A stretch of DNA of 42,886 nt. Origin: a virus. Taxonomy: Duplodnaviria > Caudoviricetes. The notes under the pieces are model-generated. The model saw nothing but the letters and a program-made list of their open reading frames with translations, had not been told where the DNA came from and made no database searches. Below are positions 528 to 42,886 of this stretch, piece after piece (positions within the stretch are counted from its first letter, which is position 1; each line of letters opens with the position of its first letter). The position numbers were made by a program, and so were the translations under genes. Location: positions 1 through 42,886 of IMG/VR virus record IMGVR_UViG_3300037044_000005, one strand, 5' to 3'.

Positions 528-569
528 AAGGATACGGGCGGGGCAGTTTCCTACCCCGCCGAGGGGGGA

Positions 570-1199: not shown

Positions 1200-1256
1200 T
1201 TTCTTTTTTCCTTTTTGAGTTTGATTCCGCATTACGCGGGTGAATGTGCTGGCGTG

Positions 1257-1475
1257 CTAGGCGGGGTTAGCGGTTGCCTCCTTACACGTTTGACATTTTT
1301 CCCAATCACCAGCACAACAACCACAAACTTCGTATTTTTCTTGTGTGCTGTAGATTTGTCCTTCAAGTCTCTTGTCACCTGCGTCAGTTGCCATGTCCTT
1401 TGTTACATACTCAATCGGATAAGAGACTAAGACAATTCCGCGCACGCAGTTTTGACAGCCCATTACAAACTCCAT
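1257..1475 (-). CDS. small Cys-rich hypothetical protein
   Basis: CxxC motifs; overlaps the stop of the upstream gene. Confidence 0.55.
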   Translation of the reverse strand: MEFVMGCQNCVRGIVLVSYPIEYVTKDMATDAGDKRLEGQIYSTQEKYEVCGCCAGDWEKCQTCKEATANPA

Positions 1476-1876
1476 TCCATTGTTTGTTTGGTATCCGCGT
1501 CAAACTCCGCCTCGGCTATGGCGTCCGCTTGCCATGTTGATGCGGAATCAAGCCAGCGGGAATCATTCTCGATCTCTGCGGCTTGCGCGTCGGCTTCGCT
1601 GGGGGCTTCGAGGGCGGTTGCCTGTTCGATGGCGGTCATCTGCTCATCTGTAAGGCTCATCGGACAACCCGCCTCAACCCATTGGGAGCCAGTCAGTACG
1701 ACATTGGAAAAGTAAACCTTTTGCACGTTGGGGAAAACATGGGAGCGGATGAAGTCTTCGGAAGTGGCGCATTCGTTGTACCCGTCCACCCATCCTTGAG
1801 TAGATTTCCAAAATGAGAATAAATTGCCGCGCTCATCTGCGCCAGTGGTCAATACTGCGGGGGTGAATGTGGTCAT
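1463..1876 (-). CDS. hypothetical protein with acidic C-terminus
   Basis: ATG at 1876 after a GAGGAG RBS; part of the packed leftward operon. Confidence 0.65.
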   Translation of the reverse strand: MTTFTPAVLTTGADERGNLFSFWKSTQGWVDGYNECATSEDFIRSHVFPNVQKVYFSNVVLTGSQWVEAGCPMSLTDEQMTAIEQATALEAPSEADAQAAEIENDSRWLDSASTWQADAIAEAEFDADTKQTMEWSL

Positions 1877-1880
1877 TAGA

Positions 1881-2036
1881 TTACTCCTCTTCCTGTGCTT
1901 CCACAAGGGCTTCGATTGCCTTTGCGATTTGAGCCTCAGACAGTCCCATTGCCAACCCTGTTGCGCGGATTGTCTCTACCGTGATCTCGTTCGTCTCGCC
2001 AATTCTGCGGCCTATGATTTTCGGCTGGTCGGTCAT
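1881..2036 (-). CDS. 51-aa hypothetical protein (not in the ORF track)
   Basis: Reads MTDQPKIIGRRIG...EAQEEE; ATGA overlap with the upstream stop; GAGG RBS. Confidence 0.6.
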   Translation of the reverse strand: MTDQPKIIGRRIGETNEITVETIRATGLAMGLSEAQIAKAIEALVEAQEEE

Positions 2037-2371
2037 TGTGTCACCTCAGCAAGCAGGGCGCGGGAGTTATGATAATTTTGATGTGATAGACAGTTACAAT
2101 TTGGGAAAGCTAGATTGTGATCGTCAAACTTAAATTCTGCGGTCATGTGTTTCAACGCCTCCACCAGCCGCTTTTCCCGTGCTTCGAGGGCGGCGATGCG
2201 GTCTTTGTCTGCGCGTTCATCTTCCTTTACCGCCTGCTCCACCCGCGCTTTCATGGCGGCGAGTTCTGAAACTCTATCAGTCAAAGCACTATCTGAGTAC
2301 TTGTGCCATTCTCCATTAGGAGTGCTGCGCCAGTGTAAAACGCCATTGATTATTTTTTCTTCTCGGTACAT
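2033..2371 (-). CDS. hypothetical protein with coiled coil
   Basis: ATG at 2371 after the AGGAGCAGAGAC RBS block. Confidence 0.65.
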   Translation of the reverse strand: MYREEKIINGVLHWRSTPNGEWHKYSDSALTDRVSELAAMKARVEQAVKEDERADKDRIAALEAREKRLVEALKHMTAEFKFDDHNLAFPNCNCLSHQNYHNSRALLAEVTQ

Positions 2372-2384
2372 GTCTCTGCTCCTA

Positions 2385-2624
2385 CTACGCATGTTCTAAC
2401 TCTACGATATACTTTTTATTTATTCTTTTCACGATATACGCCTCAAATTTCACGGCGGCAGATTCAAATTGTTTGTCAAATCGTTTAGCCGCCGCCTTGA
2501 ATGATCCCATGCTGAGACTTTTCAAATCTTGTAAATCACTATTAAACGTATCAAACTCATAATGACGATTGCGATTTACAAAATAGTTCTTTGACTTTCT
2601 TGCGTGATATGCTCTAGCCGTCAT
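2385..2624 (-). CDS. hypothetical protein
   Basis: ATG after the same AGGAGCAGAGACA RBS block. Confidence 0.65.
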   Translation of the reverse strand: MTARAYHARKSKNYFVNRNRHYEFDTFNSDLQDLKSLSMGSFKAAAKRFDKQFESAAVKFEAYIVKRINKKYIVELEHA

Positions 2625-2722
2625 TGTCTCTGCTCCTGTTTCGGTGGGGTGGTGCTGTTTACTCGTATAGAGACAGTATAAAACAAAAAGATTAAAACAA
2701 CCTTAAAGCAAGATGAGAGTTT

Positions 2723-3412
2723 TTATTGACTTTTCAGCAAGTCAAATCTGTTATGATATGAGTGCCATTTAGTCCAAGAACGCTTCGGGGTAGGCCATGA
2801 AATATAAACAGAATCAACCATGCTTACTTCTTCATTCGGGATTATAAAATAATCCCCAGTTGGTACGATGTAGCAAATAAAGAAGTCGCAGTAATTTCCG
2901 CGCCTATTCTTTCCAACGCCAAATTGATACATATCGCACTTTTGTTTCTCATTTGTTTTTCTGCTAGAAAAGCAGGCTTTTACGTCTATCTTCTTTCCGT
3001 CATCAAGAAGCATATCAAATGAGTGCATGTGCGGCATCAATTTATTACCTATGCCGATTGATTGAAGATGCTCAGACACAAGTGCTTCTATTTTTGTTCC
3101 TTTTTTTAACTCACCCCCAGATATAGCGTGACGCATACCATTCCAAGCGGCAGACAATTTATATCCAAGCCCTGCGCCGTATTTTTTATTGAGCAGTTCT
3201 TTAATTTCGGAATTTGTCATTTGCGGGTTTGACTGTACGGTTGAAATCTTTTGTTTTACGCGCTCTTGCATTGCATCGTGTCCAGTATTACCAATAATCT
3301 GACGGACGCGCTCGCGTGAAATTCCGTACTTATCAGCGATTTCCTGCAACGTCATTGCACTATCCCGCATGTTTATCATGTCTTGTTTTCTGTTCACATT
3401 TATAGTTGTCAT
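2723..3412 (-). CDS. sigma70-r4-like HTH fused to a PD-(D/E)XK nuclease-like domain
   Basis: N-terminal TLQEIADKYGISRERVRQI HTH; FDMLLDDGKKIDVKA nuclease motif; CDFFICY strand. Confidence 0.7.
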   Translation of the reverse strand: MTTINVNRKQDMINMRDSAMTLQEIADKYGISRERVRQIIGNTGHDAMQERVKQKISTVQSNPQMTNSEIKELLNKKYGAGLGYKLSAAWNGMRHAISGGELKKGTKIEALVSEHLQSIGIGNKLMPHMHSFDMLLDDGKKIDVKACFSSRKTNEKQKCDMYQFGVGKNRRGNYCDFFICYIVPTGDYFIIPNEEVSMVDSVYISWPTPKRSWTKWHSYHNRFDLLKSQ

Positions 3413-3680
3413 GTTTTTCCCTATGATAATTTTTTTAGATATTCAAGAGCAGTTTCGTAAAGTCCGCAAAACTCGCCACCGTTCAACTGGTGCGCGATGC
3501 ACATTCTCACCAATGCAGAATGACAAGCGTCAAACTCCATATATGCTAAAGTAGGGCAAAGGTTGTAAATCTGTTTTAGATTAGTGTTCATGCGTGGATA
3601 TTACGACAATAAGAAAAAACGTACAAGGTAATTATGAGAGGATTCTTATCTTCTAAGATTAGCGTTTTCTCATAATTCTA

Positions 3681-3709
3681 TTGACTAACCACCTAATCAG
3701 GCTTAATAT
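3681..3709 (+). promoter_or_regulatory. sigma70-type rightward promoter
   Basis: TTGACT-17 bp-TAATAT; inverted repeat AATTATGAGA...TCTCATAATT immediately upstream (3630-3677). Confidence 0.55.
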
Positions 3710-3847
3710 TGCACGCATGGACGGCGAACCCACTTCACAAAACGGACAAACAAAAATAATCTCCGTTGCCGTCCTTTTCTTGTATATCCGCGCTCGAATC
3801 CGCTGGTATCTCTCTATGAAATCCGCAAGTGTCATGGCTTGCTGATT

Positions 3848-3922
3848 GGACTAGAGCCGAAACTGGAAACGGGTCTGCTCATCGAAAGCAGAAAAAAGAT
3901 AGTTCGAATCTGTCCTAGTCCA
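3848..3922 (+). tRNA. atypical tRNA-like gene, nominal anticodon UCG (Arg)
   Basis: Acceptor GGACTAG/CTAGTCC, anticodon stem CTGCT/AGCAG with loop CATCGAA, T arm GATAG-TTCGAAT-CTGTC; lacks U8 and U33. Confidence 0.55.
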
Positions 3923-3924
3923 CA

Positions 3925-3986
3925 GCCCATGATGTGAGTTCGAGTCTCACCTACGAGTAATAGTAGCTCAATTGGCAGAGCAAGGC
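3925..3986 (+). ncRNA. circularly permuted tRNA-like module 1 (T arm, closed acceptor stub, D arm)
   Basis: GTGAG-TTCGAGT-CTCAC, then CTA-cgagtaa-TAG, then TAGCTC-AATTGGCA-GAGC; closed by GCC/GGC. Confidence 0.6.
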
Positions 3987-3990
3987 AGAC

Positions 3991-4051
3991 CACCAAGATG
4001 AAGGTTCGAGTCCTTCCTGATTTATCAGTAGCTCAAAGGCAGAGCAGTGTG
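3991..4051 (+). ncRNA. circularly permuted tRNA-like module 2
   Basis: GAAGG-TTCGAGT-CCTTC, then CTGA-ttta-TCAG, then TAGCTC-AAAGGCA-GAGC; closed by CAC/GTG. Confidence 0.6.
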
Positions 4052-4204
4052 AAGCACGACCTCAGTAATTTCTTACTCCTTGCGGAATTACTGAGAATTT
4101 AGAACCCTTAATAATTGAGGCATAGGAACGTAGGCACTAAAGCTGCTAGGCAGCGTGTCCGTGTAATGAACGGAAGTGATGACCTCATACATATTTTTTC
4201 TTTT

Positions 4205-4310
4205 TTGAAGATTGAAAAGATGGGCGATTAGGTCATACAGTAGATACTCGACGCTCGAAAGCAGGATGTGACTCGGTGAAAATGCTACTGCCCATCTTCT
4301 CAGTTTTCAA
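4205..4310 (+). ncRNA. long structured RNA-like hairpin
   Basis: 4205-4225 pairs with 4290-4310 (20/21 including G-U); internal stem GTCATA/TGTGAC. Confidence 0.4.
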
Positions 4311-4534
4311 GAACTGATGCCCGCAAAATCCAGCCCATCCGCGAATGAAAGGAGCGAAGCCCTCGGCTTCTATTTGATTAATTTTAGCGGATGGGAGCGG
4401 GCAATCTTGAATGTTTCAGCGCCCGACACGCTGTACAGAAGCCCCGCAGGCGGTGGTGTGGCTTACACCCCGCGCAATGTATGGGCAGCCCCGCCTCAGT
4501 CAATGGGGCGGGGAAGTTGTAAGACAATTTTCCT

Positions 4535-4567
4535 AATCAACTCGGAATCAACTCGGAATCAACTCGG
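4535..4567 (+). repeat. 3 x 11-bp perfect tandem repeat AATCAACTCGG
   Basis: Read directly from the sequence. Confidence 0.9.
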
Positions 4568-4649
4568 CGGGGGTCTTGTTTTAGTCATGTGAACATTATT
4601 GCACGCAACGCACAGACTGTCAGCACTTTTTACCGAATGGAAAGTAAAT

Positions 4650-4838
4650 ATGAGTACCAAAGGCAGCAACCAACGCACCGAGGACGCGAAATTAGAAGCT
4701 AAAGCGCGGGCGGTGCGACTGCAAAAGGATTTGGAAATTCAATTAGAAATGACCAGCGATTCCGCTGAGAGGCGCGTCATTCAGGCGCGGATTGAAAATC
4801 TGAAAGAGCTTATCAAGACGATCACGAATATAAAGTAG
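4650..4838 (+). CDS. small coiled-coil hypothetical protein
   Basis: First ORF of the rightward operon; ATG at 4650. Confidence 0.55.
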   Translation: MSTKGSNQRTEDAKLEAKARAVRLQKDLEIQLEMTSDSAERRVIQARIENLKELIKTITNIK

Positions 4839-4851
4839 AGGAGTAGAGGAT

Positions 4852-5145
4852 ATGGGCGTTTCGGAATTTCAAGCAAAAAGAGTTGTGGACTTGATGTTGG
4901 CAAGCGCAAAGAATTACGAAAAATGTATTCTTTGCGGAAGGCTAACAAAGGACAGGGGAATATTTGAGCCTAATGATGAAAACAAAAAACTATTTCATTC
5001 CCCAGACGGAAAAATAAGAATTTATATATATGCAATCTGCTGGAGACATGCAAATGAAGAAACGGCGACTCTTGTGGAAGAGCATCTTATAAAGAATGGA
5101 GAAAACGCAAACAATTTAACAAAAGTTGCGTTTGGTGGAACATGA
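4852..5145 (+). CDS. hypothetical Zn-binding protein
   Basis: CILC and CWRH motifs; AGAGGA RBS. Confidence 0.65.
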   Translation: MGVSEFQAKRVVDLMLASAKNYEKCILCGRLTKDRGIFEPNDENKKLFHSPDGKIRIYIYAICWRHANEETATLVEEHLIKNGENANNLTKVAFGGT

Positions 5146-6131
5146 GCGAAGAAAAAGCAGAATACAACTTAGAAAAAGCCCGCAGGGATAATGCAATTTT
5201 GAAGAAATACGCGGCAATTCAAAAGGCTTCCGAGGACAAGATTGGATGCCAGAAAGTTTACGTTGACATTACGGATGATATAAAGGCCGCACTTGTCTTG
5301 GATGAAATCATCTTTTTTACCTTGCCGCGCCCAAATACGGGAAAATCAGCTTTGCGAATTTTCAAGAATGGGTATCTGTGGATGGCTGTTAGGCGCTCCG
5401 AGTGGTGGGACAGAAAACGTCTAAAGGAACGCGAAGCCGACTTGGCAATTGACAAGCTGGAAAAGCTGAATCTAATCATAAAGAGTGTACATCGTTTTAA
5501 CAGCCTTCCGACAATCCACTTACGGCTAAATGTTGATGTGTTTTTCAAGCTGTATTTTGAGGCTCTGGAACGCGAAAACCCGCCAGAAGACGAAAAAGAT
5601 ACGTCAGTTTCTGACATAAACGACCTCTACGAAATGATGGGAATCCCGTTTTCACCAAATGGTAAATTACCAAACGGTGAGGGTAGATTACCAAACGGTG
5701 ACGACTCGTCACCAAACGGTGATTTCATTAACAGCCCTTACATATCCCCCACCCAACCCCCACGCGATGATTCTAAACCTGCAAAGGCAGAGCCTGACAA
5801 AATCGCAGAATGGCTAAAGATGGGACAGTTTGCAGGGGCGAAACGGGAAACACGGATTGACGCGATTCTCTCTTATTTGGGCGAGACTTTCCACGTCAAC
5901 ACCGAAACGAAGAAATGGAAGGATTTTGCCAAGTTTGCCGAGACTCGCCAGACGCATCACGGCGAAAAGATTGACGTATTTGTTTCGTGGCTTTTAGGAC
6001 AAAAGGACTTCAATCTGCAATACTGGCCGCCGTCAAAGATGGAGGAATTTTGGCCGATGGCGTTTGTAAAGAATAACGGACTTTCCCAACCTGTAACGGT
6101 TGACGAAGATGGGTTCCCGGAGAGTTACTAA
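5142..6131 (+). CDS. replication initiator (lambda O-like architecture)
   Basis: N-terminal wHTH-like region, central repeated PNG linker encoded by iterons; lies directly upstream of helicase and primase. Confidence 0.7.
   Translation: MSEEKAEYNLEKARRDNAILKKYAAIQKASEDKIGCQKVYVDITDDIKAALVLDEIIFFTLPRPNTGKSALRIFKNGYLWMAVRRSEWWDRKRLKEREADLAIDKLEKLNLIIKSVHRFNSLPTIHLRLNVDVFFKLYFEALERENPPEDEKDTSVSDINDLYEMMGIPFSPNGKLPNGEGRLPNGDDSSPNGDFINSPYISPTQPPRDDSKPAKAEPDKIAEWLKMGQFAGAKRETRIDAILSYLGETFHVNTETKKWKDFAKFAETRQTHHGEKIDVFVSWLLGQKDFNLQYWPPSKMEEFWPMAFVKNNGLSQPVTVDEDGFPESY
5654..5722 (+). repeat. four iterons, probable replication origin
   Basis: ACCAAATGGTAA at 5654 and ACCAAACGGTGA at 5669, 5690 and 5711 (spacing 15, 21, 21). 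Confidence 0.75.
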
Positions 6132-13936: not shown

Positions 13937-14260
13937 ATGAACTGGAAACTCCCCGTCATATTACTTACATTTGCAGTCATGGCGTGTGGGATGCAATTAC
14001 CACTTACTGCTGAAACTGTTACTAAGGCGAATCTTATTAACACCCCGCGCCTGTCAGCCGCTCCCGTCCCTGTAACCCCTGGTACTGCTCTCGTTTGCGG
14101 GTACTGGAACATTCGGGAAAATCCCGACCCCGATTCCGCATCAATCGGGATTGCCCCCGCTACCGTCACCCTGACAGGCAGGACAGCCACCGCGCCCGAT
14201 GGCGGGCAGTGGGTAGAGACTGCGGAAGGGTGGATGAATGAGAAGGGGTTGTGTGATTAG
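13937..14260 (+). CDS. lipoprotein with SH3b-like domain
   Basis: Signal peptide ending VMAC (lipobox-like); WNIRENP...W...GW SH3b pattern. Confidence 0.65.
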   Translation: MNWKLPVILLTFAVMACGMQLPLTAETVTKANLINTPRLSAAPVPVTPGTALVCGYWNIRENPDPDSASIGIAPATVTLTGRTATAPDGGQWVETAEGWMNEKGLCD

Positions 14261-14302
14261 CAAATTATTTGAGTCAAATAATTGCTCCAAATCATAGTTA
14301 GG
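14256..14302 (+). repeat. 47-bp cassette-array head site, copy 2
   Basis: ATTAGCAAATTATTTGAGTCAAATAATTGCTCCAAATCATAGTTAGG; the GTTAGGC core is at 14297-14303. Confidence 0.85.
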
Positions 14303-14335
14303 CAGAACCCATAAAAACGAGTTCCTTTCTAACCC

Positions 14336-14364
14336 TTGACATCGTTACTGTAACGCGGTAAGAT
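14336..14364 (+). promoter_or_regulatory. near-consensus sigma70 promoter with operator palindrome
   Basis: TTGACA-17 bp-TAAGAT; the spacer holds CGTTAC-T-GTAACG. Confidence 0.8.
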
Positions 14365-14386
14365 TAGGTCAATCAAGGAGATTGAC

Positions 14387-14671
14387 ATGACACAGACAAC
14401 CCAAACACGCGACGAGCAATTTTTGAGCCAGTTCCAATTTGGCGCAATCCGCTTCAATGAGTGGAAGCAGAAGTATCAGGTCTGGCTTGAATCCGATGAG
14501 TTTCGCTCTGGCAAGAACCAGAACGCGCCTGAATTTTTGGCGCAGGACGCGTTTGATGTCCTTTGGTTCTCCACTGTTCAGGAAGCCGAAGCGTTCTGCC
14601 AGAAGTTCGGCTTTGAGCCTGTAATGACCAAGACCGTTTACCACGTCAGCGGGAATGTCTTATGGCAGTAG
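14387..14671 (+). CDS. hypothetical protein (cassette R1)
   Basis: AAGGAG RBS directly after the promoter. Confidence 0.75.
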   Translation: MTQTTQTRDEQFLSQFQFGAIRFNEWKQKYQVWLESDEFRSGKNQNAPEFLAQDAFDVLWFSTVQEAEAFCQKFGFEPVMTKTVYHVSGNVLWQ

Positions 14672-14865
14672 TCACGTCCAGCAATCGGATGTTATTTCAG
14701 CAGGCATGGGACTTGTCCGCAGGGACGGTCTCATACCTGATTGATTGCACTAACTACGACATTATTTATACCGTAAAGCGAGAGTTTGCTTTTTGGTGTC
14801 TACGAAATCCAAATTTTGATAATTGGATTCAGGCTTGGAAGGTGTTTAGTGGTCAACAAAGATAA
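14662..14865 (+). CDS. hypothetical protein (cassette R1)
   Basis: Overlapping coupled ORF. Confidence 0.6.
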   Translation: MAVVTSSNRMLFQQAWDLSAGTVSYLIDCTNYDIIYTVKREFAFWCLRNPNFDNWIQAWKVFSGQQR

Positions 14866-15070
14866 AACAGGTAGTGATCGTCAATCCCGTTTACGTGCGT
14901 CTCGCGTCAAGTGGTTGGCTAAGAATGCTTATGGCTTATCAGCAGAAGGTCTTATTGGTGCGCTCATGCGTGGAGAATGTTTTTTATCATGGGCGGGTGT
15001 GCCAAAATCCCGCTTAAATATGATGCATGGCTCAAAGGTGGCGTCTGACAAGAAAGTGACGAGAGCATAA
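14849..15070 (+). CDS. small basic putative DNA-binding protein (cassette R1)
   Basis: GTG start after GGAAGG; TGSDRQSRLR basic helix; hairpin at 15071-15105 follows. Confidence 0.5.
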   Translation: MVNKDKTGSDRQSRLRASRVKWLAKNAYGLSAEGLIGALMRGECFLSWAGVPKSRLNMMHGSKVASDKKVTRA

Positions 15071-15123
15071 AGTGAGCGGCGGTGACCACCTAGTCGCCGT
15101 TCACTAGAATAAGAAAATATCTG

Positions 15124-15381
15124 ATGAATAAAAAAGAATTAAAAAAATTAAAACTCGGCTTGTATAAGTTGTTTTGGAAAAGCGGAGGTTATTCGCTTGC
15201 TTCTGTTGGTCAGGATAAATCTGGTGCGTTGTGGTTTGCGCCGTGTAATTGGGTTAATGTCCCATGTTTCAACTGGCGGAATGTATGGCGCGTTGAAGAA
15301 ATCTGCCTAACACAGCGTGCAGCGGATTTGCCGCCAGTCATGGGCACGGCTGAATATATCGAAGTGGCGGCAAACCGCTAA
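15124..15381 (+). CDS. hypothetical protein (cassette R1), reads through attC
   Basis: Stop TAA lies in the L' box of the attC. Confidence 0.65.
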   Translation: MNKKELKKLKLGLYKLFWKSGGYSLASVGQDKSGALWFAPCNWVNVPCFNWRNVWRVEEICLTQRAADLPPVMGTAEYIEVAANR

Positions 15382-15396
15382 CGCAAACCGTTGGGC
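15305..15396 (+). mobile_element. attC site (92 bp)
   Basis: GCCTAAC-ACAGC-GTGCAGCGGATTTGCCGCCA ... TGGCGGCAAACCGCTAACGC-AAACC-GTTGGGC, with an attC-like bulged fold. Confidence 0.88.
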
Positions 15397-15425
15397 GGCT
15401 CTCGCTCAAAGAAAAGGAATTGCAA

Positions 15426-15644
15426 ATGGAATATATGCCGCAAGTAAAAGTAAGCAAAGAAGATTTCCTAGCGTTGAGTGATCTAGCTGGTGAAATGTCA
15501 ATCATGGATTACATGAGCAAGGTTATTCATGAGCATGTCGCCGCCCAACAAAGCGTGTACTCTGACGCGGCTACCGTGTCGAATTGCAAACATAATTTTG
15601 GTGATGGTTTATATTGTATCCATTGCGGTGAAGTCTTATTTTAG
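15426..15644 (+). CDS. cassette R2 protein (RHH-like N-terminus, Cys/His C-terminus)
   Basis: AAAGGA RBS after the core site; the C-terminus is encoded inside the attC. Confidence 0.6.
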   Translation: MEYMPQVKVSKEDFLALSDLAGEMSIMDYMSKVIHEHVAAQQSVYSDAATVSNCKHNFGDGLYCIHCGEVLF

Positions 15645-15670
15645 CCGCGCAGGTAACGCAACCGTTCGGC
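15543..15670 (+). mobile_element. attC site (128 bp)
   Basis: GCCCAAC-AAAGC-GTGTACTCTGACGCGGCTA ... TAGCCGCGCAGGTAACGC-AACC-GTTCGGC. Confidence 0.8.
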
Positions 15671-29914: not shown

Positions 29915-30763
29915 ATGGAAAAAGAATACAAAGGCTCTGTTTATATCGGCGTAGTCGGTAATGAGTTGGAAAACGGGCAGTGTCGTGACAGTATAGAAAA
30001 CATCACGCGCCGCAAGACAGACAGCCCGCCGATTTATGTAAGAGCTACGAAGGGCTACGAAGCCCGACAAATGCACCTTAACAACTGGTACGACAACACA
30101 AAGCACGCTTTTATTTTGCTTCTTGACCATGACATGATTTTTCAGCCTGATACGCTGGAGAGACTACGCAAGCATAAAAAGCCGTTCGTCTCTGGCTTTT
30201 ACATGCGCCGCACGTTTAATCCAGTAGCTCCCGTATGGTTTGAGCAAGGCGAAGCAGGAAAGATGCCGATGAAGCCGTTTACTTTCGTCCCTGAAAAGGA
30301 CAGGCTGTATCCCATTGGCGCGAGTGGCTGGGGTTGTATTCTCCTTCACCGTGATGTTGTTACAGAAACTCGCAAGCTATTGAAAGGCGAGCCTGACATT
30401 ATCGAAGATGACATGGACATTGCGCCCTATGACTTGCAAAAGATACTCAAGGCAATTGACAACCTTGCAGGCGATAAACCTAACCTAAAAGAATCGGTCA
30501 AGGTCTTACAGGAAGAAATCATCCCATTGCGGGGTGTAAAAGACCCAGTCGGCTCAGACATCCGCTTTCCTTTCTACGCTCGGCTGGCTGGCTTTCCTCT
30601 TTTGGGAGATAGCGGAGTGAATTGCGGGCATATCGTCAATTACCCGATAAAGATGGACGACTATATCAACCAGTCCGCCGCCACTGTTAGAAGTTTATCG
30701 GTAGCGATGCACGAAAGCCATACGCGAGAGATCGAGCGGCTGGAGAAAGCGAAAGCGCAATGA
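29915..30763 (+). CDS. GT-A fold (GT2-like) glycosyltransferase
   Basis: LLLDHD DxD motif, GWGCILL, GSDIRF and CGH. Confidence 0.8.
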   Translation: MEKEYKGSVYIGVVGNELENGQCRDSIENITRRKTDSPPIYVRATKGYEARQMHLNNWYDNTKHAFILLLDHDMIFQPDTLERLRKHKKPFVSGFYMRRTFNPVAPVWFEQGEAGKMPMKPFTFVPEKDRLYPIGASGWGCILLHRDVVTETRKLLKGEPDIIEDDMDIAPYDLQKILKAIDNLAGDKPNLKESVKVLQEEIIPLRGVKDPVGSDIRFPFYARLAGFPLLGDSGVNCGHIVNYPIKMDDYINQSAATVRSLSVAMHESHTREIERLEKAKAQ

Positions 30764-32334
30764 GATTGCACATTATCGAGCCGTATCACTCCGCTGCCAT
30801 GCGTCGAATGTCAGAGCCGCTTATCAAGGAACTGGAAAAGCTGTACGAAGTGACAACAGGCGAAGCGCCAGATGATGCCGCAGGCCTGAATTATCACATC
30901 CCCTGGCATTCGCTGGTTGGATATGAAAAGAAAGGCAAGCACGCGATTTCATACACTCACTGCAATGTCGGCAATGAAGCCGCATTGATGGACGCTTGCG
31001 AACGCGCCGACCTTATCACCTGCATGACCTTTCGCGGACGGGATGAACTTATTGAACTTGGTGTAGACCCGTCAAAGTTATGGGTTATCTACTCCGCCGC
31101 AGATCAATACTTTTTCAGAAAGCGCGTTATTGGGATTGTGGGTTATCCACAACCAAACGGACGCAAACGCGAGAGCCTTATTTTAGATTTGGCTTGGAGT
31201 TACGACCTGACGCCCTATCAGTTTTTATTTATCGGTGCAGGGTGGGACGATATGGTGACGCAGTTGCAGGGGCTTGGAGTTTCAGCCGCTACTTATCACG
31301 CCGAGACAGATGAGCTACTGCGGAATATGTATCACAAGATGGATTTACTTTTGGTAACAGGTTACCGCGAAGGCGGGCCATTACCGCTGATTGAGGCAAT
31401 GGCTTCAGGCTGTGACGTACTCTCGCCCCGCTTTGGATATGCCGCCGATTTATTGGAAGAAAGCCAACTCTATGACGACATGGCCGACTTAGCTGAGAAG
31501 TTAGACGCCTTAACCGCGCCATACATCCGCAACCATAAACTCGCCCGTGCCTGTACATGGATGGATTATTGTGCCGAACATGCTTTTATTTTCGGGCGGC
31601 TGATGGGTGAATCAGTAGACCTATATCCAGAGCGCGGAATGAGCCGATACGCTCAAGTGATGGATGTCATAGACCAGATGAAACCCTTTGGCATTGTCGA
31701 GGTCGGCACTTGGAGCGGCGCACGCGCAATCCAGATGATACAAACCGCCGCCAAACATAGACCAGCAGGTGAAATCGAGTATCAGGGATTTGACCTTTTC
31801 GAGCAGCAGACCGCCGAACAATTCAGGCGCGAGTTATCGAAAATCGGCTGGGATGAAGACATTGTTAGCAAGCGTATCAACGCCACTGGCGCAAATGTTG
31901 AACTTATCACGGGCGACACCAAAGAAACTCTTGGCAAAAACATAAACGACTTTGAAAGCATTGTTTATTTTGTAGATGGCGGGCATTCAGAAGAGACAAT
32001 TAGAAGCGATGGTGAAAACGTTTTAGAGGTTATGCAAAATAATTCTGTGGCCGTATTCGATGATTACTACCATGAAGGAAAGCCCGAAGGCATGGGGTGT
32101 AATGATTTTATCGACAACCTAGACCTTGATACTTTTGAAGTAGTCCATTTGCCCGCCCGCACCATTACGGCTGACGGGCGCAACATCGGAATGGTGAAAG
32201 TGAGACGAAATGCCAACATATATTTACAGCGACGGGAAGCACTCGCAGGAAGTAACACATTCCATGACAGAGAATCCGCCGATTGTCTGTCAAGTGTGCG
32301 GATTGAAAATGCACCGACGCCCGCAAATATTTAG
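30760..32334 (+). CDS. GT-B (GT4-like) glycosyltransferase fused to a class I SAM methyltransferase
   Basis: EGGPLPLIEAMASG; VEVGTWSG, FVDGGHS and VFDDY. Confidence 0.85.
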   Translation: MRLHIIEPYHSAAMRRMSEPLIKELEKLYEVTTGEAPDDAAGLNYHIPWHSLVGYEKKGKHAISYTHCNVGNEAALMDACERADLITCMTFRGRDELIELGVDPSKLWVIYSAADQYFFRKRVIGIVGYPQPNGRKRESLILDLAWSYDLTPYQFLFIGAGWDDMVTQLQGLGVSAATYHAETDELLRNMYHKMDLLLVTGYREGGPLPLIEAMASGCDVLSPRFGYAADLLEESQLYDDMADLAEKLDALTAPYIRNHKLARACTWMDYCAEHAFIFGRLMGESVDLYPERGMSRYAQVMDVIDQMKPFGIVEVGTWSGARAIQMIQTAAKHRPAGEIEYQGFDLFEQQTAEQFRRELSKIGWDEDIVSKRINATGANVELITGDTKETLGKNINDFESIVYFVDGGHSEETIRSDGENVLEVMQNNSVAVFDDYYHEGKPEGMGCNDFIDNLDLDTFEVVHLPARTITADGRNIGMVKVRRNANIYLQRREALAGSNTFHDRESADCLSSVRIENAPTPANI

Positions 32335-34034: not shown

Positions 34035-34215
34035 AGAACAACAAATTGAAAAACTGAAGAAACAGGTTAAGCGTTTTGAAGACAAGGGCTATTTAGACAC
34101 CGCCGCTCATCAAATGCTTGCAAATCTGCTGAAAGATTCCGATGAGGGCGTATCCCCCCGAAGCACCGAACAGGTGAAACAGGAGAACAAGAAAAATGGC
34201 AAACAAAATTTATAA
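34024..34215 (+). CDS. hypothetical protein
   Basis: GAGG RBS; overlaps both neighbours. Confidence 0.5.
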   Translation: MQSKEQQIEKLKKQVKRFEDKGYLDTAAHQMLANLLKDSDEGVSPRSTEQVKQENKKNGKQNL

Positions 34216-34630
34216 AGACATGCGAATCAAGATAGATAATGCCTCCGCTTCACTGACGGACATTACCTCTTATCTGTCTAGTGCTTCGCTCCGCGCCGTA
34301 CAAGACACGATTGAAGACACAAGCCTCGCAGATGGAAATCGCTCCTACCTGTTCGGTTTGGCAGGCGCTTCCATCCCATTATCAGGCATGGTCAACACAA
34401 CAACTGATGCCATCTTTGGGCCGCTGGTTGGCAATCGCACCACAGTGACGAAGACCATCGAATACCGCGCTTATCCGACCAACTCCACTGGCAGCGTAGG
34501 CCGTTTTTACAACGGCGAAGTTCTGATTACCTCGGTGGAATATTCGGGGAGCGTCAACAGCTTGGAAACGTTTAGCTGTGAAGCCGTTTTTGACGGCGCG
34601 GTGAATCGTACCTCAACGCAATTGGCATAG
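34196..34630 (+). CDS. tail tube protein, paralog 1
   Basis: IEDTSLAD..RSYLFGL pattern; upstream of chaperone and tape measure genes. Confidence 0.75.
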   Translation: MANKIYKDMRIKIDNASASLTDITSYLSSASLRAVQDTIEDTSLADGNRSYLFGLAGASIPLSGMVNTTTDAIFGPLVGNRTTVTKTIEYRAYPTNSTGSVGRFYNGEVLITSVEYSGSVNSLETFSCEAVFDGAVNRTSTQLA

Positions 34631-34637
34631 GTGAGAC

Positions 34638-35060
34638 ATGGCAAACAAAATTTATAAAGATATTACCGTGAAGGTAGACGCTCCGAATAGTACGGGGACG
34701 CTTGCGCTGGTAGACATCACTTCATATTTATCGAGCGCATCATTACGCTCGGTACAAGACACGATTGAAGACACAAGCCTCGCAGATGAAGAACGCTCTT
34801 ATTTGTTTGGACTAGCGGGCGCTTCCATTCCGCTGGCTGGAATGGTGAACACCACGACTGACAACGCCTTTGGTCCGTTGATCGGCAATCGCACCACCGC
34901 CACAAGAACAATTCAATACACCGCATACAGCGGGCGCGTGTATCGCGGCGAGGCTCTGATTACCTCGGTTGAATATTCGGGGAGTGTCAACTCTCTGCAA
35001 ACATTTAGCTCCGAGGCCGTTTTTGATGGAGCAATAACCCGCACTAGCGTTGCACTTTAG
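34638..35060 (+). CDS. tail tube protein, paralog 2
   Basis: Closely similar to the preceding ORF along its whole length. Confidence 0.75.
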   Translation: MANKIYKDITVKVDAPNSTGTLALVDITSYLSSASLRSVQDTIEDTSLADEERSYLFGLAGASIPLAGMVNTTTDNAFGPLIGNRTTATRTIQYTAYSGRVYRGEALITSVEYSGSVNSLQTFSSEAVFDGAITRTSVAL

Positions 35061-37365: not shown

Positions 37366-40247
37366 CAACCATTTTAATGGACATTTTTATCTATGTAGAC
37401 GGCGGCTGGACAAGCGTCTTAGCCGATACCCTTTCCGCAAGCGAGGCGTCTGCTGATTGGGGCATGGCTTCAAACAGGCCAGATGACAGAGTAGCAAAAA
37501 CAGGGACGCTTTCTTTCAGCCTGAAAAATCACACAGGCAAATACCTACCAGGCGGAGCGAGTGTCATCTCTGCGGATTGGGACAAAGGCACGAAAGTAAA
37601 AGTAGTATTCACCTTCAACGGGGAAAGTTGGGTACGCTTTTACGGCGTAGTGAATAAGCTGGACATCCTCAAGACGCCTAGCAATTCCGTTGTAAAAGTG
37701 TCGTGTGTGGACTGGCTGGACTACGCCGCAAAATATCCGCTGAGCAATCCCGCGATCCAGTTAGATAAAAGTATGGATGAAGTGATAACCACCGTCTTGG
37801 ACGCGATGCCAATTCCCCCACTGGCGCGGGATATTTCCACTGGCGTGAATGTGTTCCCTACCGTCTTTAACGATGCGTCTATGTTCACTTTGGGATTGTC
37901 TGAATTTTCAAAGATGGCAATTTCAGAGATGGGATACATATACGTCAAAAAAGATAAAACGTATGGCGAAACAATACGGGCAGAATCGGCGGCGTCCAGA
38001 GTTTTATCAACGCCTAGAAAACAAGTTGCCATATCGCAAGACCCAGGCTTTTTACTTCAAGAGAATGGCGATTTTCTTTTACAAGAGAACGGGGATAAAT
38101 TATTACTTGGTGGATACACCTTCGAGGACGTTGTTGTAAATAATAGCATGGAAGACATCGGCGTGGATTATGGCGAGAACCTGATAAACCGCCTAACCTT
38201 GACCGTCAACCCAACAAGAATCGACACAGTAGACACACAGCTTTATAGCATTGATTCACCCATCTACTTTGAGCCGTCGGCGGTGAAACAATTCAACGTA
38301 CAGTTTACAGAGCCGAACAGCAAACGACTTGTCGCAGCTTTACCGCCAGAGGACTCTTATCCTACCGCGCTATTGCATTTTGACGAAGCGGGAACAACTG
38401 GATTAATCTCGGACGATAGCGGGCGGGTGTGGTCAGACTTCGGCGTTGATCTGGTTTCCAATATCAAGTATCTAGGGTCACGAGCCGCATATTTTGACGG
38501 TAGTAATGCTTACGTCTATGCCCCCAGCGCGGACATATTCGAGTTTGGCAGTGATAACTTCACGGTGGAATGGTGGGAGTATCGCTTAGATGCGACGTCA
38601 GGTTATGCCACAATCCGCAGGAGCGACAGCGCAGGGTTCATCCCCTGGAAGTTTGGAGAGTCGGACGGTACAAACTCAAAGATTTACATCACGTCTAACG
38701 GCGCATCATGGGACATTGCCAACGGTAGGACGTTCGGAGCGATTGCAACACAGACATGGACACACTATTCAATCTGCCGAGTAGGAAATACTTTCTACGC
38801 CCGAAAGAACGGATTACTCACAGACACTTGGACTTCATCGGCAACGATTCTAGCTAGTACAGCCAGTTTGTATATCGGCGGCACCAGCACATGTATCAAC
38901 GCCATTATTGATGAGGTGCGGATTACCAAAGGCTTGGGGCGCTACGCCACGACATTCACCCCGCAGACAGAGCCTTACAGCCTGTCAGGTCTTATCTATT
39001 CCGCTTGGACAAATCGCGGCGGGGATGGCACGGAACTAACAGCGGATTTTGACATCACAGTTTCATACGGTGCGGCTGGCGCCACCCTGAACGTGACCAA
39101 CTCAGGCACGGTTGGCGGATGGCTCAATAATCTAAAGATATTCGGGAAGGTGGTAGAGAACACCAGTCCTATTTCAGACGTACAGGAAGACGCCGCCTCT
39201 ATTGCAAGATACAGCCACCATGAGTTGATTATCAATCAGGTGTACCAACAGGATTTCACGACAGGACGCGAGGAAGGCGCAAAGATTCTAGGGGAGAACA
39301 AGACGCCGCTTATCCGTGTAAATAATGTCACGATGAACGCGAATAAAAGCGAGGCACATACTCGCTACTTCCTAGAGACGGACGTGGGTGATGTGGTGAA
39401 AATCGTGGAGCCGACCACAGAAACCAATGCGGATTATTTCATTCAGGGTATGAACTGGAAGGCGTCGGCTGGAAATAACGGCGTGATTGTGGATTTTGGA
39501 TGGACGGTGAAGAAATTCCGCGAGGCTCTTTCCGCGCTGGCGATTCAGTTTGCAGACCTTACCACGAACGACAACTATCTAAACTTCGGGTATCAGGCGG
39601 CGGTATCTGCGGACAATGTGCCTTATCGGATTTGGTCGTACTGGTTCAAGTCCGCTCTATCCAGACAGGATGCCAGTCACATTACTACAAAAAGCGCCGC
39701 CGATGGGTCTGCTACTGGCAGGGGCTATACAATTTATACAGGTGCTACTGGGAGACTTTCTATTAATGCGAAATACGGAAATGTGATGAAGCAATGGAGA
39801 GCAGATAGCGCCATACCGAACGTTAACGACACATGGCATCACGTATTTATCGCCCATGATACCCGTTCCTCTGGCACGCCGATTATGTATGTCAACGGTT
39901 CTGCTGTAACGCCTTCTTTGATTTCCTCCACCACAACAGACAATGAGACTGAGGTGGGTACTGAGTTGAAAATCGGATACGGGGCACAAGACACCAGCAT
40001 GAAAGACATCCGCATTTACAACGGCGACCAGGTTGCCGACCCCGCAGCATTGGCGGTGGCTCTGTACGCTGAGACTCCATACGGGGATGCGAATACACGC
40101 GGCTTGTTATTCCGCACGTTCTACGCGCCAACAAACGAACTGGCAGATTACGAAGGCGATTACTTGACCGAAGACCAAAAGGTTTTTGATGACATCGGCT
40201 TTGCGGCGGGCACGCCAATAGATGACCCGCTCGGTGAAGCATTATAA
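37362..40247 (+). CDS. large tail tip/baseplate protein with LamG-like lectin domains
   Basis: LLHFD...FDG...FTVEWW...WTHYSI...IDEVRIT, and a second WHHVFI domain. Confidence 0.75.
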   Translation: MTTILMDIFIYVDGGWTSVLADTLSASEASADWGMASNRPDDRVAKTGTLSFSLKNHTGKYLPGGASVISADWDKGTKVKVVFTFNGESWVRFYGVVNKLDILKTPSNSVVKVSCVDWLDYAAKYPLSNPAIQLDKSMDEVITTVLDAMPIPPLARDISTGVNVFPTVFNDASMFTLGLSEFSKMAISEMGYIYVKKDKTYGETIRAESAASRVLSTPRKQVAISQDPGFLLQENGDFLLQENGDKLLLGGYTFEDVVVNNSMEDIGVDYGENLINRLTLTVNPTRIDTVDTQLYSIDSPIYFEPSAVKQFNVQFTEPNSKRLVAALPPEDSYPTALLHFDEAGTTGLISDDSGRVWSDFGVDLVSNIKYLGSRAAYFDGSNAYVYAPSADIFEFGSDNFTVEWWEYRLDATSGYATIRRSDSAGFIPWKFGESDGTNSKIYITSNGASWDIANGRTFGAIATQTWTHYSICRVGNTFYARKNGLLTDTWTSSATILASTASLYIGGTSTCINAIIDEVRITKGLGRYATTFTPQTEPYSLSGLIYSAWTNRGGDGTELTADFDITVSYGAAGATLNVTNSGTVGGWLNNLKIFGKVVENTSPISDVQEDAASIARYSHHELIINQVYQQDFTTGREEGAKILGENKTPLIRVNNVTMNANKSEAHTRYFLETDVGDVVKIVEPTTETNADYFIQGMNWKASAGNNGVIVDFGWTVKKFREALSALAIQFADLTTNDNYLNFGYQAAVSADNVPYRIWSYWFKSALSRQDASHITTKSAADGSATGRGYTIYTGATGRLSINAKYGNVMKQWRADSAIPNVNDTWHHVFIAHDTRSSGTPIMYVNGSAVTPSLISSTTTDNETEVGTELKIGYGAQDTSMKDIRIYNGDQVADPAALAVALYAETPYGDANTRGLLFRTFYAPTNELADYEGDYLTEDQKVFDDIGFAAGTPIDDPLGEAL

Positions 40248-40259
40248 GGAGATTTAGAA

Positions 40260-41024
40260 ATGGCTGATTCTGATATTAGTGGATTAACTGCAAACACTAC
40301 CCCCGCAGTGGGTGATTTACTGGCAATCGTTGACGACCCCGCAGGTTCAGCGGTAACTCAAAAAATTACCGCGTCCGATTTCCTGAAGGTTGTAAACGGA
40401 CTGACAGAGGATACAAGCCCCGATAACGCGGCGGATTTTCTTCTGTCCTACGATACAAGCGCAAGCGCGGCAAAGAAAGTCAAGCCTGAAAACATTGTAG
40501 TTAGTGGCGGCGGAAAAGGACGCGGGGAAATCCTGTCTTCGTCTGTGCCTTTGACGTTGGGCGCCCCGATTGGATTCATTGACAGCGGCTCATCCCCCGT
40601 TGATTCATTCCCCTACTTTGAGTTTGGGGATTCCGCGCTGGCGTATGTAGATTTTTATTGCCGATTGATGAATTATCAGGGCGGCGGGTTGACTGTTGAC
40701 TTTAACCTCTTGAGGACAACGGCGGCGGCGGCGGCTGGTTATTATTTTCAGGCTGCAATCCGCAGAATCGCTAATGCGTCGGATGATATTACCGCCTCAC
40801 ATACCTACGATTACAACAGTGTGACCGTCAACGTACCTGCTGGTCCGCCTGCGGCTGGTATTCCGATGGAAGGGACTATCACTTTCACAGACGGCGCGGA
40901 CATGGACAGCCTCGCGGATAATGAAATGTTCGTTTTACGTTTCAGACGCGACCCGACTCACGCAAACGATAACGCGGGTGATGCGGCGCGGGTGCTGGCT
41001 ACGATCACCATTCGGGAGACGTAA
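40260..41024 (+). CDS. tail fibre/receptor-binding-associated protein
   Basis: MADSDISGL..TP..GD...TQKIT N-terminal repeat; AAGGAG RBS. Confidence 0.6.
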   Translation: MADSDISGLTANTTPAVGDLLAIVDDPAGSAVTQKITASDFLKVVNGLTEDTSPDNAADFLLSYDTSASAAKKVKPENIVVSGGGKGRGEILSSSVPLTLGAPIGFIDSGSSPVDSFPYFEFGDSALAYVDFYCRLMNYQGGGLTVDFNLLRTTAAAAAGYYFQAAIRRIANASDDITASHTYDYNSVTVNVPAGPPAAGIPMEGTITFTDGADMDSLADNEMFVLRFRRDPTHANDNAGDAARVLATITIRET

Positions 41025-41026
41025 TC

Positions 41027-41701
41027 ATGGCTAGAGTATTTAACGGGTCAAGTCAGTATCTTTCTGCTTCATCGACTTTGCTTTCCAATGAGCCGATTGA
41101 TGTTGTTATGTTTGCAAACTCAGACACAACTACTGCGGCGCAGGTTGCCTTTTGTTTGGGGAACAATGGCGCAAGTGGTATGTACTCCATTTCATTTGAG
41201 GGTACTACGGGGGGCGACCCAATAAGAGGGCTGAAACAAAGTGACGCAGGCGCTAACGGTTTTGCAGATACTGCGTCCTATTCAGCCGCGACATGGTACG
41301 CAGTTTCCATGTCTTTAATATCTGATACGTCAAGAGCGATTTTTCTGAACGGAACAAAAACGGCGAATACAACCAACACCGCCGACCCCTCGCCCGACTT
41401 TATAACTATCGGGGCGTTACGGCGCTCATCTGTTGCCGCTTATTTTGATGGAAGTATATCTGAAACGTATATGCTTGATGTCAATATGTCAGACGCACAG
41501 CACGCTCTGGCTGGAAAAGGTATCTCCCCCTTCTGGCTTGTGCCTGGTAAGAACGTGCGGGCTTGGTATCCATTGCAGGGGCATAATAACAACAGGGTCA
41601 GGAACGGTTATCCTGACCTGTCTGCTACGGGAAGTCCTACTAATGGCACGCATCCTGCGCGGGTGATGCGTCCGAGGATAAATGGAGTTATGGCGGTGTA
41701 G
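41027..41701 (+). CDS. LamG/concanavalin-like tail protein
   Basis: FNGSSQYL...TWYAV...IGA...FDGSISE. Confidence 0.7.
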   Translation: MARVFNGSSQYLSASSTLLSNEPIDVVMFANSDTTTAAQVAFCLGNNGASGMYSISFEGTTGGDPIRGLKQSDAGANGFADTASYSAATWYAVSMSLISDTSRAIFLNGTKTANTTNTADPSPDFITIGALRRSSVAAYFDGSISETYMLDVNMSDAQHALAGKGISPFWLVPGKNVRAWYPLQGHNNNRVRNGYPDLSATGSPTNGTHPARVMRPRINGVMAV

Positions 41702-41885
41702 CGGCTTGTACGAGCGTCCGCCCAACGGTTTGCGTTAGGCGGCATTGACGTTTGCCAAAATATTTATAATGGCATTTAGGACACATGTAAATTTTTTTAT
41801 CTCCGCCAGATGCTAACTTTACATTGACGAGAATCGTATTTTCACTTTCGCAAGGGATGCCTCCCCAATACATTTCACATTTCAC
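41688..41885 (-). CDS. cassette L5 small Cys-rich protein
   Basis: GTG start after GAGG; CPKC motif. Confidence 0.55.
   Translation of the reverse strand: MKCEMYWGGIPCESENTILVNVKLASGGDKKIYMCPKCHYKYFGKRQCRLTQTVGRTLVQAATPP
41720..41740 (-). mobile_element. collapsed 21-bp attC remnant
   Basis: Minus strand reads GCCTAAC-GCAAACC-GTTGGGC. Confidence 0.7.
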
Positions 41886-41915
41886 TTTGCCTCACTTTCT
41901 CGTTGAGCGAGAGCC

Positions 41916-42033
41916 GCCCAATGGTTTGCTTTACCTGCCTGCGGCGGTCACAGCCAAGTAAACCGAGCCAACATATAAAGCGAATAAAATTACCGCCTGC
42001 CCAAAGCAGGTCAGGTGCAAGCGTGTGTTAGGT
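41916..42033 (-). mobile_element. attC site (118 bp; R' is ATTGGGC)
   Basis: ACCTAAC-ACACGC-TTGCACCTGACCTGC ... GCAGGCAGGTAAAGC-AAACC-ATTGGGC. Confidence 0.8.
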
Positions 42034-42161
42034 GGCGTCACATCTTCCAAAGTACCACCGAACATATCACGATAATCTTTCGCCGTTTGCTCATCCATTG
42101 GGACTGACTTCGCCCCATCTGGATAAATGACACGAAACTTTTTATATCTAGCAAAGAACAT
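41931..42161 (-). CDS. cassette L4 protein
   Basis: GGAGG RBS; the hydrophobic C-terminus is encoded inside the attC. Confidence 0.65.
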   Translation of the reverse strand: MFFARYKKFRVIYPDGAKSVPMDEQTAKDYRDMFGGTLEDVTPPNTRLHLTCFGQAVILFALYVGSVYLAVTAAGR

Positions 42162-42176
42162 AAATACCTCCGAGCC

Positions 42177-42268
42177 ACCTAACGGTTGGCGTTAGCGGTT
42201 GGCGGGTTGCGCCAGACTCGCTAATTTTTCGGACGAGTCCAGCCAATCCGCTGCACGCTTTGTTAGAC
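42177..42268 (-). mobile_element. attC site (92 bp)
   Basis: GTCTAAC-AAAGC-GTGCAGCGGATTGGC ... GCCAACCGCTAACGC-CAACC-GTTAGGT. Confidence 0.88.
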
Positions 42269-42272
42269 CCCG

Positions 42273-42596
42273 TTACCGACTTACAGATACTTCGGCGTCG
42301 GGATTTTCTTCGCAAGAGGCAAGATACTCTTGCACAAAAGATACAAGACCTTCGTAAGTTCCCCATCCATTTTCAGGATTGAATTTCTTGAAACGCTCAG
42401 GGTCGCTTTTGAGAAGTTCGAGACCAGCACGCAACGGCTCAATGAGTTGTTCGGCTTTGGTAATTTCAATTTCATCGGGTCGCCAAAGGTGCTTATAGAT
42501 ACCCGCCTCATCAGCCATTTTATTGAGGTTATGGGTGATATTTGCGCTATGTACCGTAGTGGGGCGAACAGCACGGAGATAAACATCGAGTGACAT
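42273..42596 (-). CDS. cassette L3 phage-type hypothetical protein
   Basis: AAAGGA RBS; NITHNL...NPENGWGTY motif; stops 5 nt before R''. Confidence 0.8.
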   Translation of the reverse strand: MSLDVYLRAVRPTTVHSANITHNLNKMADEAGIYKHLWRPDEIEITKAEQLIEPLRAGLELLKSDPERFKKFNPENGWGTYEGLVSFVQEYLASCEENPDAEVSVSR

Positions 42597-42629
42597 ATTT
42601 TTCCTTTCACACTGCCAAGCAAGGCAGGG

Positions 42630-42751
42630 GTCTAACGGTTATGCTTTACCTGCGCGCTTTGCGCTACGCTTTTCGATACGCCACGCACGTTTACGATAAG
42701 GCTTCTTTCTTGGCGCGGGCTTCAAAGCGTCAGGTGCAAGCTGGGTTGGGC
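42630..42751 (-). mobile_element. attC site (122 bp)
   Basis: GCCCAAC-CCAGC-TTGCACCTGACGC ... GCGCAGGTAAAGC-ATAACC-GTTAGAC. Confidence 0.82.
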
Positions 42752-42854
42752 GGCTGAGAAATTCAATGCCAGCCATGCAGATTTCTTGGTGATGCTCATG
42801 GCAGTAATGGAAACACGTGCGCTCTTTGCCACAATCTTTTTTTTCACACTTCAT
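42639..42854 (-). CDS. cassette L2 small Cys/His-rich protein
   Basis: AAGGAG RBS after the core site; the basic tail is encoded inside the attC. Confidence 0.65.
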   Translation of the reverse strand: MKCEKKDCGKERTCFHYCHEHHQEICMAGIEFLSRPTQLAPDALKPAPRKKPYRKRAWRIEKRSAKRAGKA

Positions 42855-42886
42855 AATTTCTCCTTGTTGAGCAGTCCGCCCAACGG

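Follow-up and report, generated by a model that had tools for sequence, protein, structure and literature searches.

Integron parts in phages have so far been treated as rare, host-derived passengers. In the accessible part of Qi et al. 2023 (PMC9892861), 3 complete integrons, 1 In0 and 17 CALINs are counted among 10,705 phages (21/10,705 in all), and five of six phage attC sites recombine with attI1, so phage-borne arrays as such are already known. The integrase IntI excises cassettes through attC × attC recombination, inserts the circles at attI and can also act on CALINs in trans, according to the excerpted text of Cury et al. 2016 (PMC4889954), while the accessible part of Loot et al. (10.1101/2022.09.11.507474) describes attG insertion, which takes place outside integrons at GWT. 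The available portions of two further sources (PMC13323075 and 10.64898/2026.09.14.751636) are relevant here for their definitions only.

Here we describe a 42,886-bp stretch of viral DNA from groundwater (the window, meaning the whole stretch that was analysed), which carries two rows of integron-type cassettes. With four plus two full attC sites and no integrase found, the window is by definition a CALIN and not a complete integron, and it appears to work like an integron. Like the CALINs in the accessible part of Qi et al. (Tetrasphaera phage TJE1, for example), it has co-oriented small genes bounded by attC sites and no intI, and methyltransferase cargo is a further likeness in the family to which its attC sites belong (11 of the 48 cassette ORFs of related contigs). 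Unlike those CALINs, for which the parts of PMC9892861 examined give neither an attI nor population evidence, the window has two arrays behind a conserved attI-like site and a standing polymorphism at G|TT, and its attC family is lineage-wide and includes phages that encode IntI. The twin docking-like sites and the standing polymorphism at G|TT are what is new here.

The inverted-integrase integrons in the excerpted text of Cury et al. (PMC4889954) share with the relatives of the window a canonical IntI whose gene is located ahead of attI and the array in the same orientation; in contrast to them, the platform here sits in phage early operons and bears phage-type cargo, and the window has attI-like sites without intI. 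Insertion at attG, as far as the accessible part of Loot et al. describes it, resembles the window in that IntI would act in trans on a replicon lacking intI and would cut at GWT, whereas the target in the window is duplicated and conserved, and is followed by stacked arrays, not by scattered single insertions. A literature search by title or abstract start, covering few subscription journals, returned nothing on the phage family of the window or on active cassette shuffling or polymorphism in phage populations.

Two arrays of attC-bounded cassettes

The window spans an entire IMG/VR record that is classed as linear, with a CheckV completeness of 53% and a 5-bp overlap between the contig ends. 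Its gene content, read from 74 selected ORFs, includes helicase, primase, methylases, endolysin, terminase, portal, capsid and tail genes, and its early operons are divergent. Since a DTR-complete relative of 42.3 kb (G059) is itself rated only 49% complete, the 53% of the window is no sign of a fragment. Array 1 consists of five cassette-like minus-strand units (L1–L5) that reach from 272 across the contig ends to 41726, with the last tail gene on one side and the end of the leftward early operon on the other. Array 2, a second row of cassettes on the plus strand at 14297–15670, and the head site shared by both arrays were absent from an earlier sequence-only reading of this DNA. The features are as follows.

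268–314, minus: head site 1, predicted attI-like, 47 bp; crossover G at 273, internal palindrome
3–272, minus: cassette L1, 270 bp; Cys-rich ORF from 260, running on into the attC
About 1–124, minus: L1 attC; 40.5 bits with the covariance model
42882–42886, minus: L1/L2 junction, overlapping positions 1–5; holds the crossover G|TT and the population fork
42636–42883, minus: cassette L2, 248 bp; Cys/His-rich ORF from 42854
42630–42751, minus: L2 attC; 43.5 bits with the covariance model
42183–42635, minus: cassette L3, 453 bp; 107-aa ORF at 42273–42596, phrog_4019 (function unknown)
42177–42268, minus: L3 attC; 76.7 bits with the covariance model
41922–42182, minus: cassette L4, 261 bp; ORF from 42161
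41916–42033, minus: L4 attC; 52.0 bits; pair broken at the R box, R′ reading ATT
41726–41921, minus: cassette L5, 196 bp; Zn-ribbon-like ORF from 41885
41720–41740, minus: L5 attC stub, 21 bp; R″ fused to the 3′ end, without L boxes
41702–41725, minus: remnant, 24 bp; starts like a cassette and directly adjoins the last tail gene at its stop codon
14256–14302, plus: head site 2, predicted attI-like, 47 bp; crossover G at 14297; starts at the stop codon of ORF 13937–14260
14298–15390, plus: unit 2a, 1093 bp; several small ORFs and an intact attC (15305–15396)
15391–15664, plus: cassette 2b, 274 bp; ORF from 15426
About 15543–15670, plus: 2b attC; 34.8 bits with the covariance model

The sequence-only reading had taken array 1 for five short co-oriented genes, each ending in an attC-type hairpin, with the footprint of circle integration at G|TT. 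All five genes are present as minus-strand ORFs. A covariance model trained on 41 attC sites of other viral contigs, none of them from the window, matches six full attC sites in the window (four in array 1, two in array 2) at 34.8–79.0 bits, with E-values of 5e-9 to 5e-19 for the four in array 1 and 79.0 bits for the site at 15305–15396 in unit 2a; control viral DNA of 80 loci (235 kb) yields one match with the same model, at 18 bits. This model, built from other phages, recognises four of the five ends that the reading had proposed as attC sites. The fifth, at L5, is a 21-bp stub without L boxes, at 13.9 bits (E 0.1). Rfam gave no match on either array.

Among the 41 training sites, both partners vary in 15 of the 22 stem pairs and 94.7% of cells are paired. 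Their covariation score of 0.573 compares with 0.138 for shuffles and with 0.142 or less for slid partners. These counts lean towards structure, because the training sites were picked by a pattern demanding some L-arm pairing. The consensus fold has paired L″/L′ arms, an unpaired central spacer and bulged columns 16–17 and 23; the six full sites of the window conform to it, whereas the L5 stub has no such arms. R″ and R′ boxes are present in L1–L3, 2a and 2b, and AAC/GTT is invariant in 41/41 training sites. At L4 the crossover reads ATT in place of GTT; with its crossover G changed to A, the L4 attC is likely impaired. Bottom-strand folding, also proposed as a check, agreed weakly for L1 (z = −1.65) and L3 (−2.38), but L2 (0.06) and L4 (0.10) fold about as their shuffles do.

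The footprint at the cassette starts was borne out to the nucleotide: each start matches the reverse complement of its own R″ over 9 (L1), 9 (L2), 10 (L3) and 10 (L4) nt, and the downstream R′ over only 3, 3, 5 and 0 nt, respectively. The own-R″ match is 10 nt in 2a and 10 nt in 2b, which makes 9–10 nt in six of the seven window cassettes, with a downstream R′ match of at most 5 nt across L1–L4, 2a and 2b. At L5 the near match to its own R″ that had been noticed before is confirmed, with 2 mismatches (positions 1 and 4). Among 51 close adjacent attC pairs in other viral contigs, 41 show an own-R″ match of at least 9 nt and three a match of that kind to the downstream R′. Together with the model matches, these counts support the identification of integron-type cassettes that bear the footprint of circle integration at G|TT.

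The ORFs of L1, L2, L4 and L5 run into their own attC, with no stop before it. That of L1 has no Pfam, PHROG or PADLOC match, and that of L5 has a weak Zn-ribbon Pfam match below the cut-off. At the DNA level, array 1 has no blastn match in 50,697 GenBank phage records, and the window cassettes have no full-length match in the other viral loci compared, where matches are confined to attC parts and one 115-nt piece of L1 (73%). No relatives were found for the flanking genes (41027–41701 and 570–1232), and consequently no empty-site sister genome. Judged by its cassette-like start, the remnant at 41702–41725 may be a cut-off sixth cassette.

At 1093 bp, unit 2a is not a simple one-gene cassette. 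A promoter scan places an internal promoter-like site at 14336–14364, and comparison by eye with G059 indicates a decayed attC remnant near 15037–15100. The stretch at 14310–15110, about 800 bp that hold the promoter-like site, three small ORFs and the decayed attC ahead of the last gene, possibly represents nested or domesticated cassettes. Downstream of 2b, a cassette-like start follows with no further attC.

Head sites and integrase

The two 47-bp head sites form a 98% inverted repeat (one mismatch) with unrelated flanks, and the upstream part of head site 1 encodes the C-terminus of a small ORF (273–425). Both contain a palindrome and close with an AA-rich box, five bases and a GTT. The heads of unrelated phages, which we located via the complement of the first R″ upstream of the array, have an AA-rich box, a 5-nt spacer ending CATA or CACTA, and then GTT. 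An L-box, a spacer and an R-box make up the layout of attI, and the head pattern resembles what we take to be the attI1 core layout, such that each head reads as a predicted attI-like docking site.

A matrix built from 11 hand-picked heads of other phages, with the window excluded, places the window heads tied first (ranks 1–2) of 1346 GTT sites, by a small margin (8.8 bits, compared with 7.8 bits for the next), while a matrix from 7 distinct sites directly after an intI stop codon ranks them only 46–47 of 1346. Elsewhere the head site has chance matches only, two in viral contigs and one in genome contigs. An attG site would have GWT alone conserved and no attI-like left box; the heads differ from this in their 47-bp duplication and shared consensus. 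Over the crossover of head site 1 there is a sigma-70 promoter match of 9/12, which is at chance level (0.9 expected by chance), and the promoter scan found no match at head site 2.

Just upstream of the crossover, the heads of G059 and of five viral loci (L035, L038, L041, L080 and L229) show by eye a sigma-70-like −35/−10 pair. With such pairs at many heads, promoter and docking site may be one element. The head sites of the window are also inverted repeats about 13.9 kb apart, and recombination between them would invert the replication region.

We found no match in the window to PF00589, PF00239 or TIGR02249 (tyrosine recombinase, resolvase and IntI), nor a tblastn match with nine phage IntI queries. 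As the phage has no detectable integrase, IntI likely acts in trans. Tested for IntI were 50 of the approximately 112 attC-bearing viral records, with long ones and multi-site arrays favoured; six of these 50, all rated 85–100% complete, encode an IntI that passes the TIGR02249 cut-off, in one case interrupted by an internal stop. The intI of these six immediately precedes the first cassette and shares its strand, and an attI of similar geometry is found directly 3′ of the intI stop codon. The phrog_2 terminase is detected in 22/50 attC-bearing records and in 1/6 IntI-bearing ones; given so few matches, their status as phages rests mainly on the IMG/VR class and on CheckV values of 85–100%.

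One IntI of this family is 47% identical to class 1 IntI1 over 97% of its length, and of the 120 homologs listed for it, the one close homolog that carries a name comes from a Chloroflexota MAG (79%). Because of this one name, the host of the phage is likely, if weakly so, a Chloroflexota bacterium; against this, a portal homolog (50%) is named from Chitinivibrionales, and no host name of use could be drawn from the homologs listed for capsid and portal.

A complete integron of the window's attC family is present in GenBank KX853513 (Virus Rctr41k; viral locus L219:4680–10101), with an IntI-like gene annotated as xerD, an attI-like site after its stop codon, six attC sites and methyltransferase cargo; a text search of one supplementary file of Qi et al. 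(PMC9892861) did not return the name Rctr41k. In the relative G014, two arrays (42805–44297 and 1–5900; viral loci L188 and L190) each have a tyrosine recombinase gene directly after them. The first of these recombinases resembles IntI (257 bits, slightly below the TIGR02249 cut-off), and its gene begins immediately behind an attC, as though cassettes went in between promoter and intI.

Relatives, cargo and leaders

An exact 18-nt attC motif occurs at 141 IMG/VR loci on about 112 distinct contigs, some of which may be chance matches, and the attC family of the window, which has canonical attC architecture, forms arrays in about 110 viral contigs. Among 29 records found through the capsid, four have attC sites (G014, G059, G053 and G068; capsid 75–89% identical) and 25 have none; most of these are short fragments, but they include four records of 38–48 kb with a capsid identity of at most 58%. 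A comparison of related phages had been suggested as a check on cassette gain or loss: the four relatives do carry arrays or cassettes whose contents differ from the window. The arrays of G014 and G053 face the end of the late operon, like array 1, and the array of G059, which has no IntI, lies upstream of exonuclease and endolysin genes, like array 2.

In G014 (30929–31018) and G068 (1674–1763), a single cassette occupies an AT-rich secondary site that separates terminase from portal; it looks like an attG-type insertion. The corresponding gap in the window is only 18 bp.

Cassette cargo in the family is phage-like. The 48 cassette ORFs of related contigs comprise 11 DNA methyltransferases, 2 unknown PHROGs and 35 with no match, and no function was assigned to the cargo of the window by PADLOC, Pfam or PHROGs. 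The L3 protein has 80 viral homologs listed, of which 0/80 adjoin an attC of the window's family, and its Atlas neighbours are mostly viral. Its closest homolog among the matches listed (79% over 100 aa) has a hairpin downstream (viral locus L231:1800–1920) that by eye looks like an attC of another type.

The leader of L2 (first 27–30 nt, 42857–42884) precedes four unrelated ORFs in other contigs (viral loci L226–L229), and L5 and 2b have a common leader (41903–41921 and 15391–15409). Cassette leaders with ribosome-binding sites are thus seen to be reused by unrelated ORFs. A few cassettes are common to different phages, at 81–89% identity.

We tentatively suggest, as a possibility rather than an expectation, that a likely Chloroflexota phage lineage runs its own integron economy, in which some members would encode IntI and attI and others, the phage of the window among them, would retain docking sites alone and borrow the enzyme, and in which cassettes would be built from phage genes between reusable leaders and attC sites. 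If true, phages would be a place where cassettes arise and shuffle, which bears on the question of cassette origin. With L3 homologs outside such cassettes (80 listed) and identical leaders before unrelated ORFs, that origin is testable by comparison, and the family supplies matched parts for direct tests, namely phage IntI, attI with and without intI, and attC.

The population fork and its readings

Two groundwater runs, X1 and X2, carry the DNA; both possibly represent the source sample and hence are not independent. We compared their contigs over window positions 40000–42886. In both runs, a single 8128-nt contig (depth 111.5 and 144.5, respectively) covers the tail genes and L2–L5 at even depth and ends at 42886, where a 55-nt and a 328-nt contig overlap its last 30 nt. 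The 55-nt branch (depth 57.4 and 78.2) has the length of a direct L1–L2 join (30 + 30 − 5), and the 328-nt branch (depth 51.4 and 58.6) has the length 55 + 273. Their depths sum to 108.8 and 136.8 beside the main depths of 111.5 and 144.5, at about 55:45. The last depth bin (155.6 and 200.0) is explained exactly by both branches, so no third contig shares the node. A second main contig of 34,327 nt and the same depth contains array 2; its coordinates equal those of the window, so it starts at position 1, which implies a branch at that end as well. In about 47% and 43% of molecules, L2 accordingly has another upstream neighbour, with the breakpoint inside the 5 bp.

From a linear record whose ends overlap by only 5 bp, the continuation of array 1 into positions 1–273 could only be inferred. 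The join is present in the runs, but in only about 55% of molecules. The fork falls at the L1/L2 crossover and in this respect supports the earlier suggestion that the phage gains and shuffles cassettes.

Judged by branch length and depth balance, the 328-nt branch most likely represents a single additional cassette of 273 bp that some of the molecules carry; less simple readings would be a longer insert, integration into other DNA or the coexistence of two old strains. Since contigs can hide SNPs, the two forms may be old coexisting strains, with no ongoing recombination. Other explanations of the fork could be discarded. Another organism sharing that 30-mer is excluded by the depth of the last bin, which leaves no third contig, and the branch is a copy neither of 2b (274 bp, with a different start) nor of L1 (270 bp). 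It is not among the matches of a metagenome scan with the L2 leader, which found four other cassettes.

We consider it probable that an integrase-less phage carries two arrays behind attI-like sites and exchanges cassettes at G|TT through an IntI acting in trans. Its source would be the host chromosome or a co-infecting phage that encodes IntI. While the phage replicates, the enzyme would bind attC sites that are exposed as folded single strands; attC × attC recombination would release cassettes, and circles would be inserted either at an attC or through attC × attI, steps that we infer for this phage. Newly gained cassettes would come in at the head, with older ones decaying distally (ATT at L4, the stub at L5), and both arrays, co-oriented with the early operons, would be transcribed from these. 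As two docking-like sites are kept and the population differs exactly at the IntI crossover, the cassette system appears to work for the phage. The arrays could alternatively be an inert block, captured a single time from another phage or a host integron through homologous or illegitimate recombination, with the fork reflecting two old strains or a deletion at the 5-bp microhomology; the accessible part of Qi et al. (PMC9892861) proposes such capture for phage CALINs, and the lack of IntI in the genome, the decayed distal sites and the inability of contigs to reveal SNP differences between the two forms would fit. We regard this as unlikely, since the breakpoint is confined to 5 bp holding G|TT, unbroken 8.1-kb and 34.3-kb contigs are common to both forms, and two separate arrays lie behind a conserved head, with relatives carrying different cassettes at comparable places.

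It is improbable that the heads are attG-type hotspots, that is, AT-rich promoter or operator GWT sites hit off-target, with arrays grown by attC × attC, as the same 47 bp head both arrays despite unrelated flanks and the heads of unrelated phages have a common AA-rich box, 5-nt spacer and GTT, presumably the attI layout. Insertion of this kind needs little beyond GWT, according to the accessible text of 10.1101/2022.09.11.507474, and it would be consistent with the many heads that overlap sigma-70-like promoters, with the modest match of the heads to intI-adjacent attI and with the lone cassette of G014 and G068 in the AT-rich terminase–portal site. The whole phage might even be a giant cassette, integrated by IntI into a host array at L1/L2, so that the fork would separate free from integrated molecules. 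Divergent early operons without an integrase, an array 1 that sits where attP and int normally would, the tyrosine recombinase that follows an array at a comparable place in G014 and the unseen far end of the 328-nt branch all speak for this; yet other cassette-like contigs on the array, at depth 7–20, are shallower in X2 than in X1, whereas the 328-nt branch gains depth along with the phage, and the single 328-nt edge balances the flow at both ends, which leaves this reading very improbable. Finally, that host cassettes were mis-joined to a phage contig during assembly deserves almost no credence: the record is linear, rated 53% by CheckV and ends inside a repeat-like site, but in both runs depth is even along the 8128-nt contig that spans tail genes and L2–L5, array 2 is embedded in the equally deep 34,327-nt contig, and a DTR-complete relative of 42.3 kb is likewise rated only 49% complete. 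The favoured reading thus remains exchange at G|TT by an IntI that would be supplied in trans.

Three further observations concern the remainder of the genome. At 34196–35060 the major tail protein genes are duplicated in tandem, and the run assemblies break there too (34,327 and 34,759). Between the divergent early operons, 3957–4024 has a tRNA-like Rfam match (36.1 bits), while ARAGORN called no tRNA in the window, including this interval. Within the head module (29915–32334) lie two glycosyltransferase-like genes, one of them fused to a methyltransferase domain, which are conserved in relatives.
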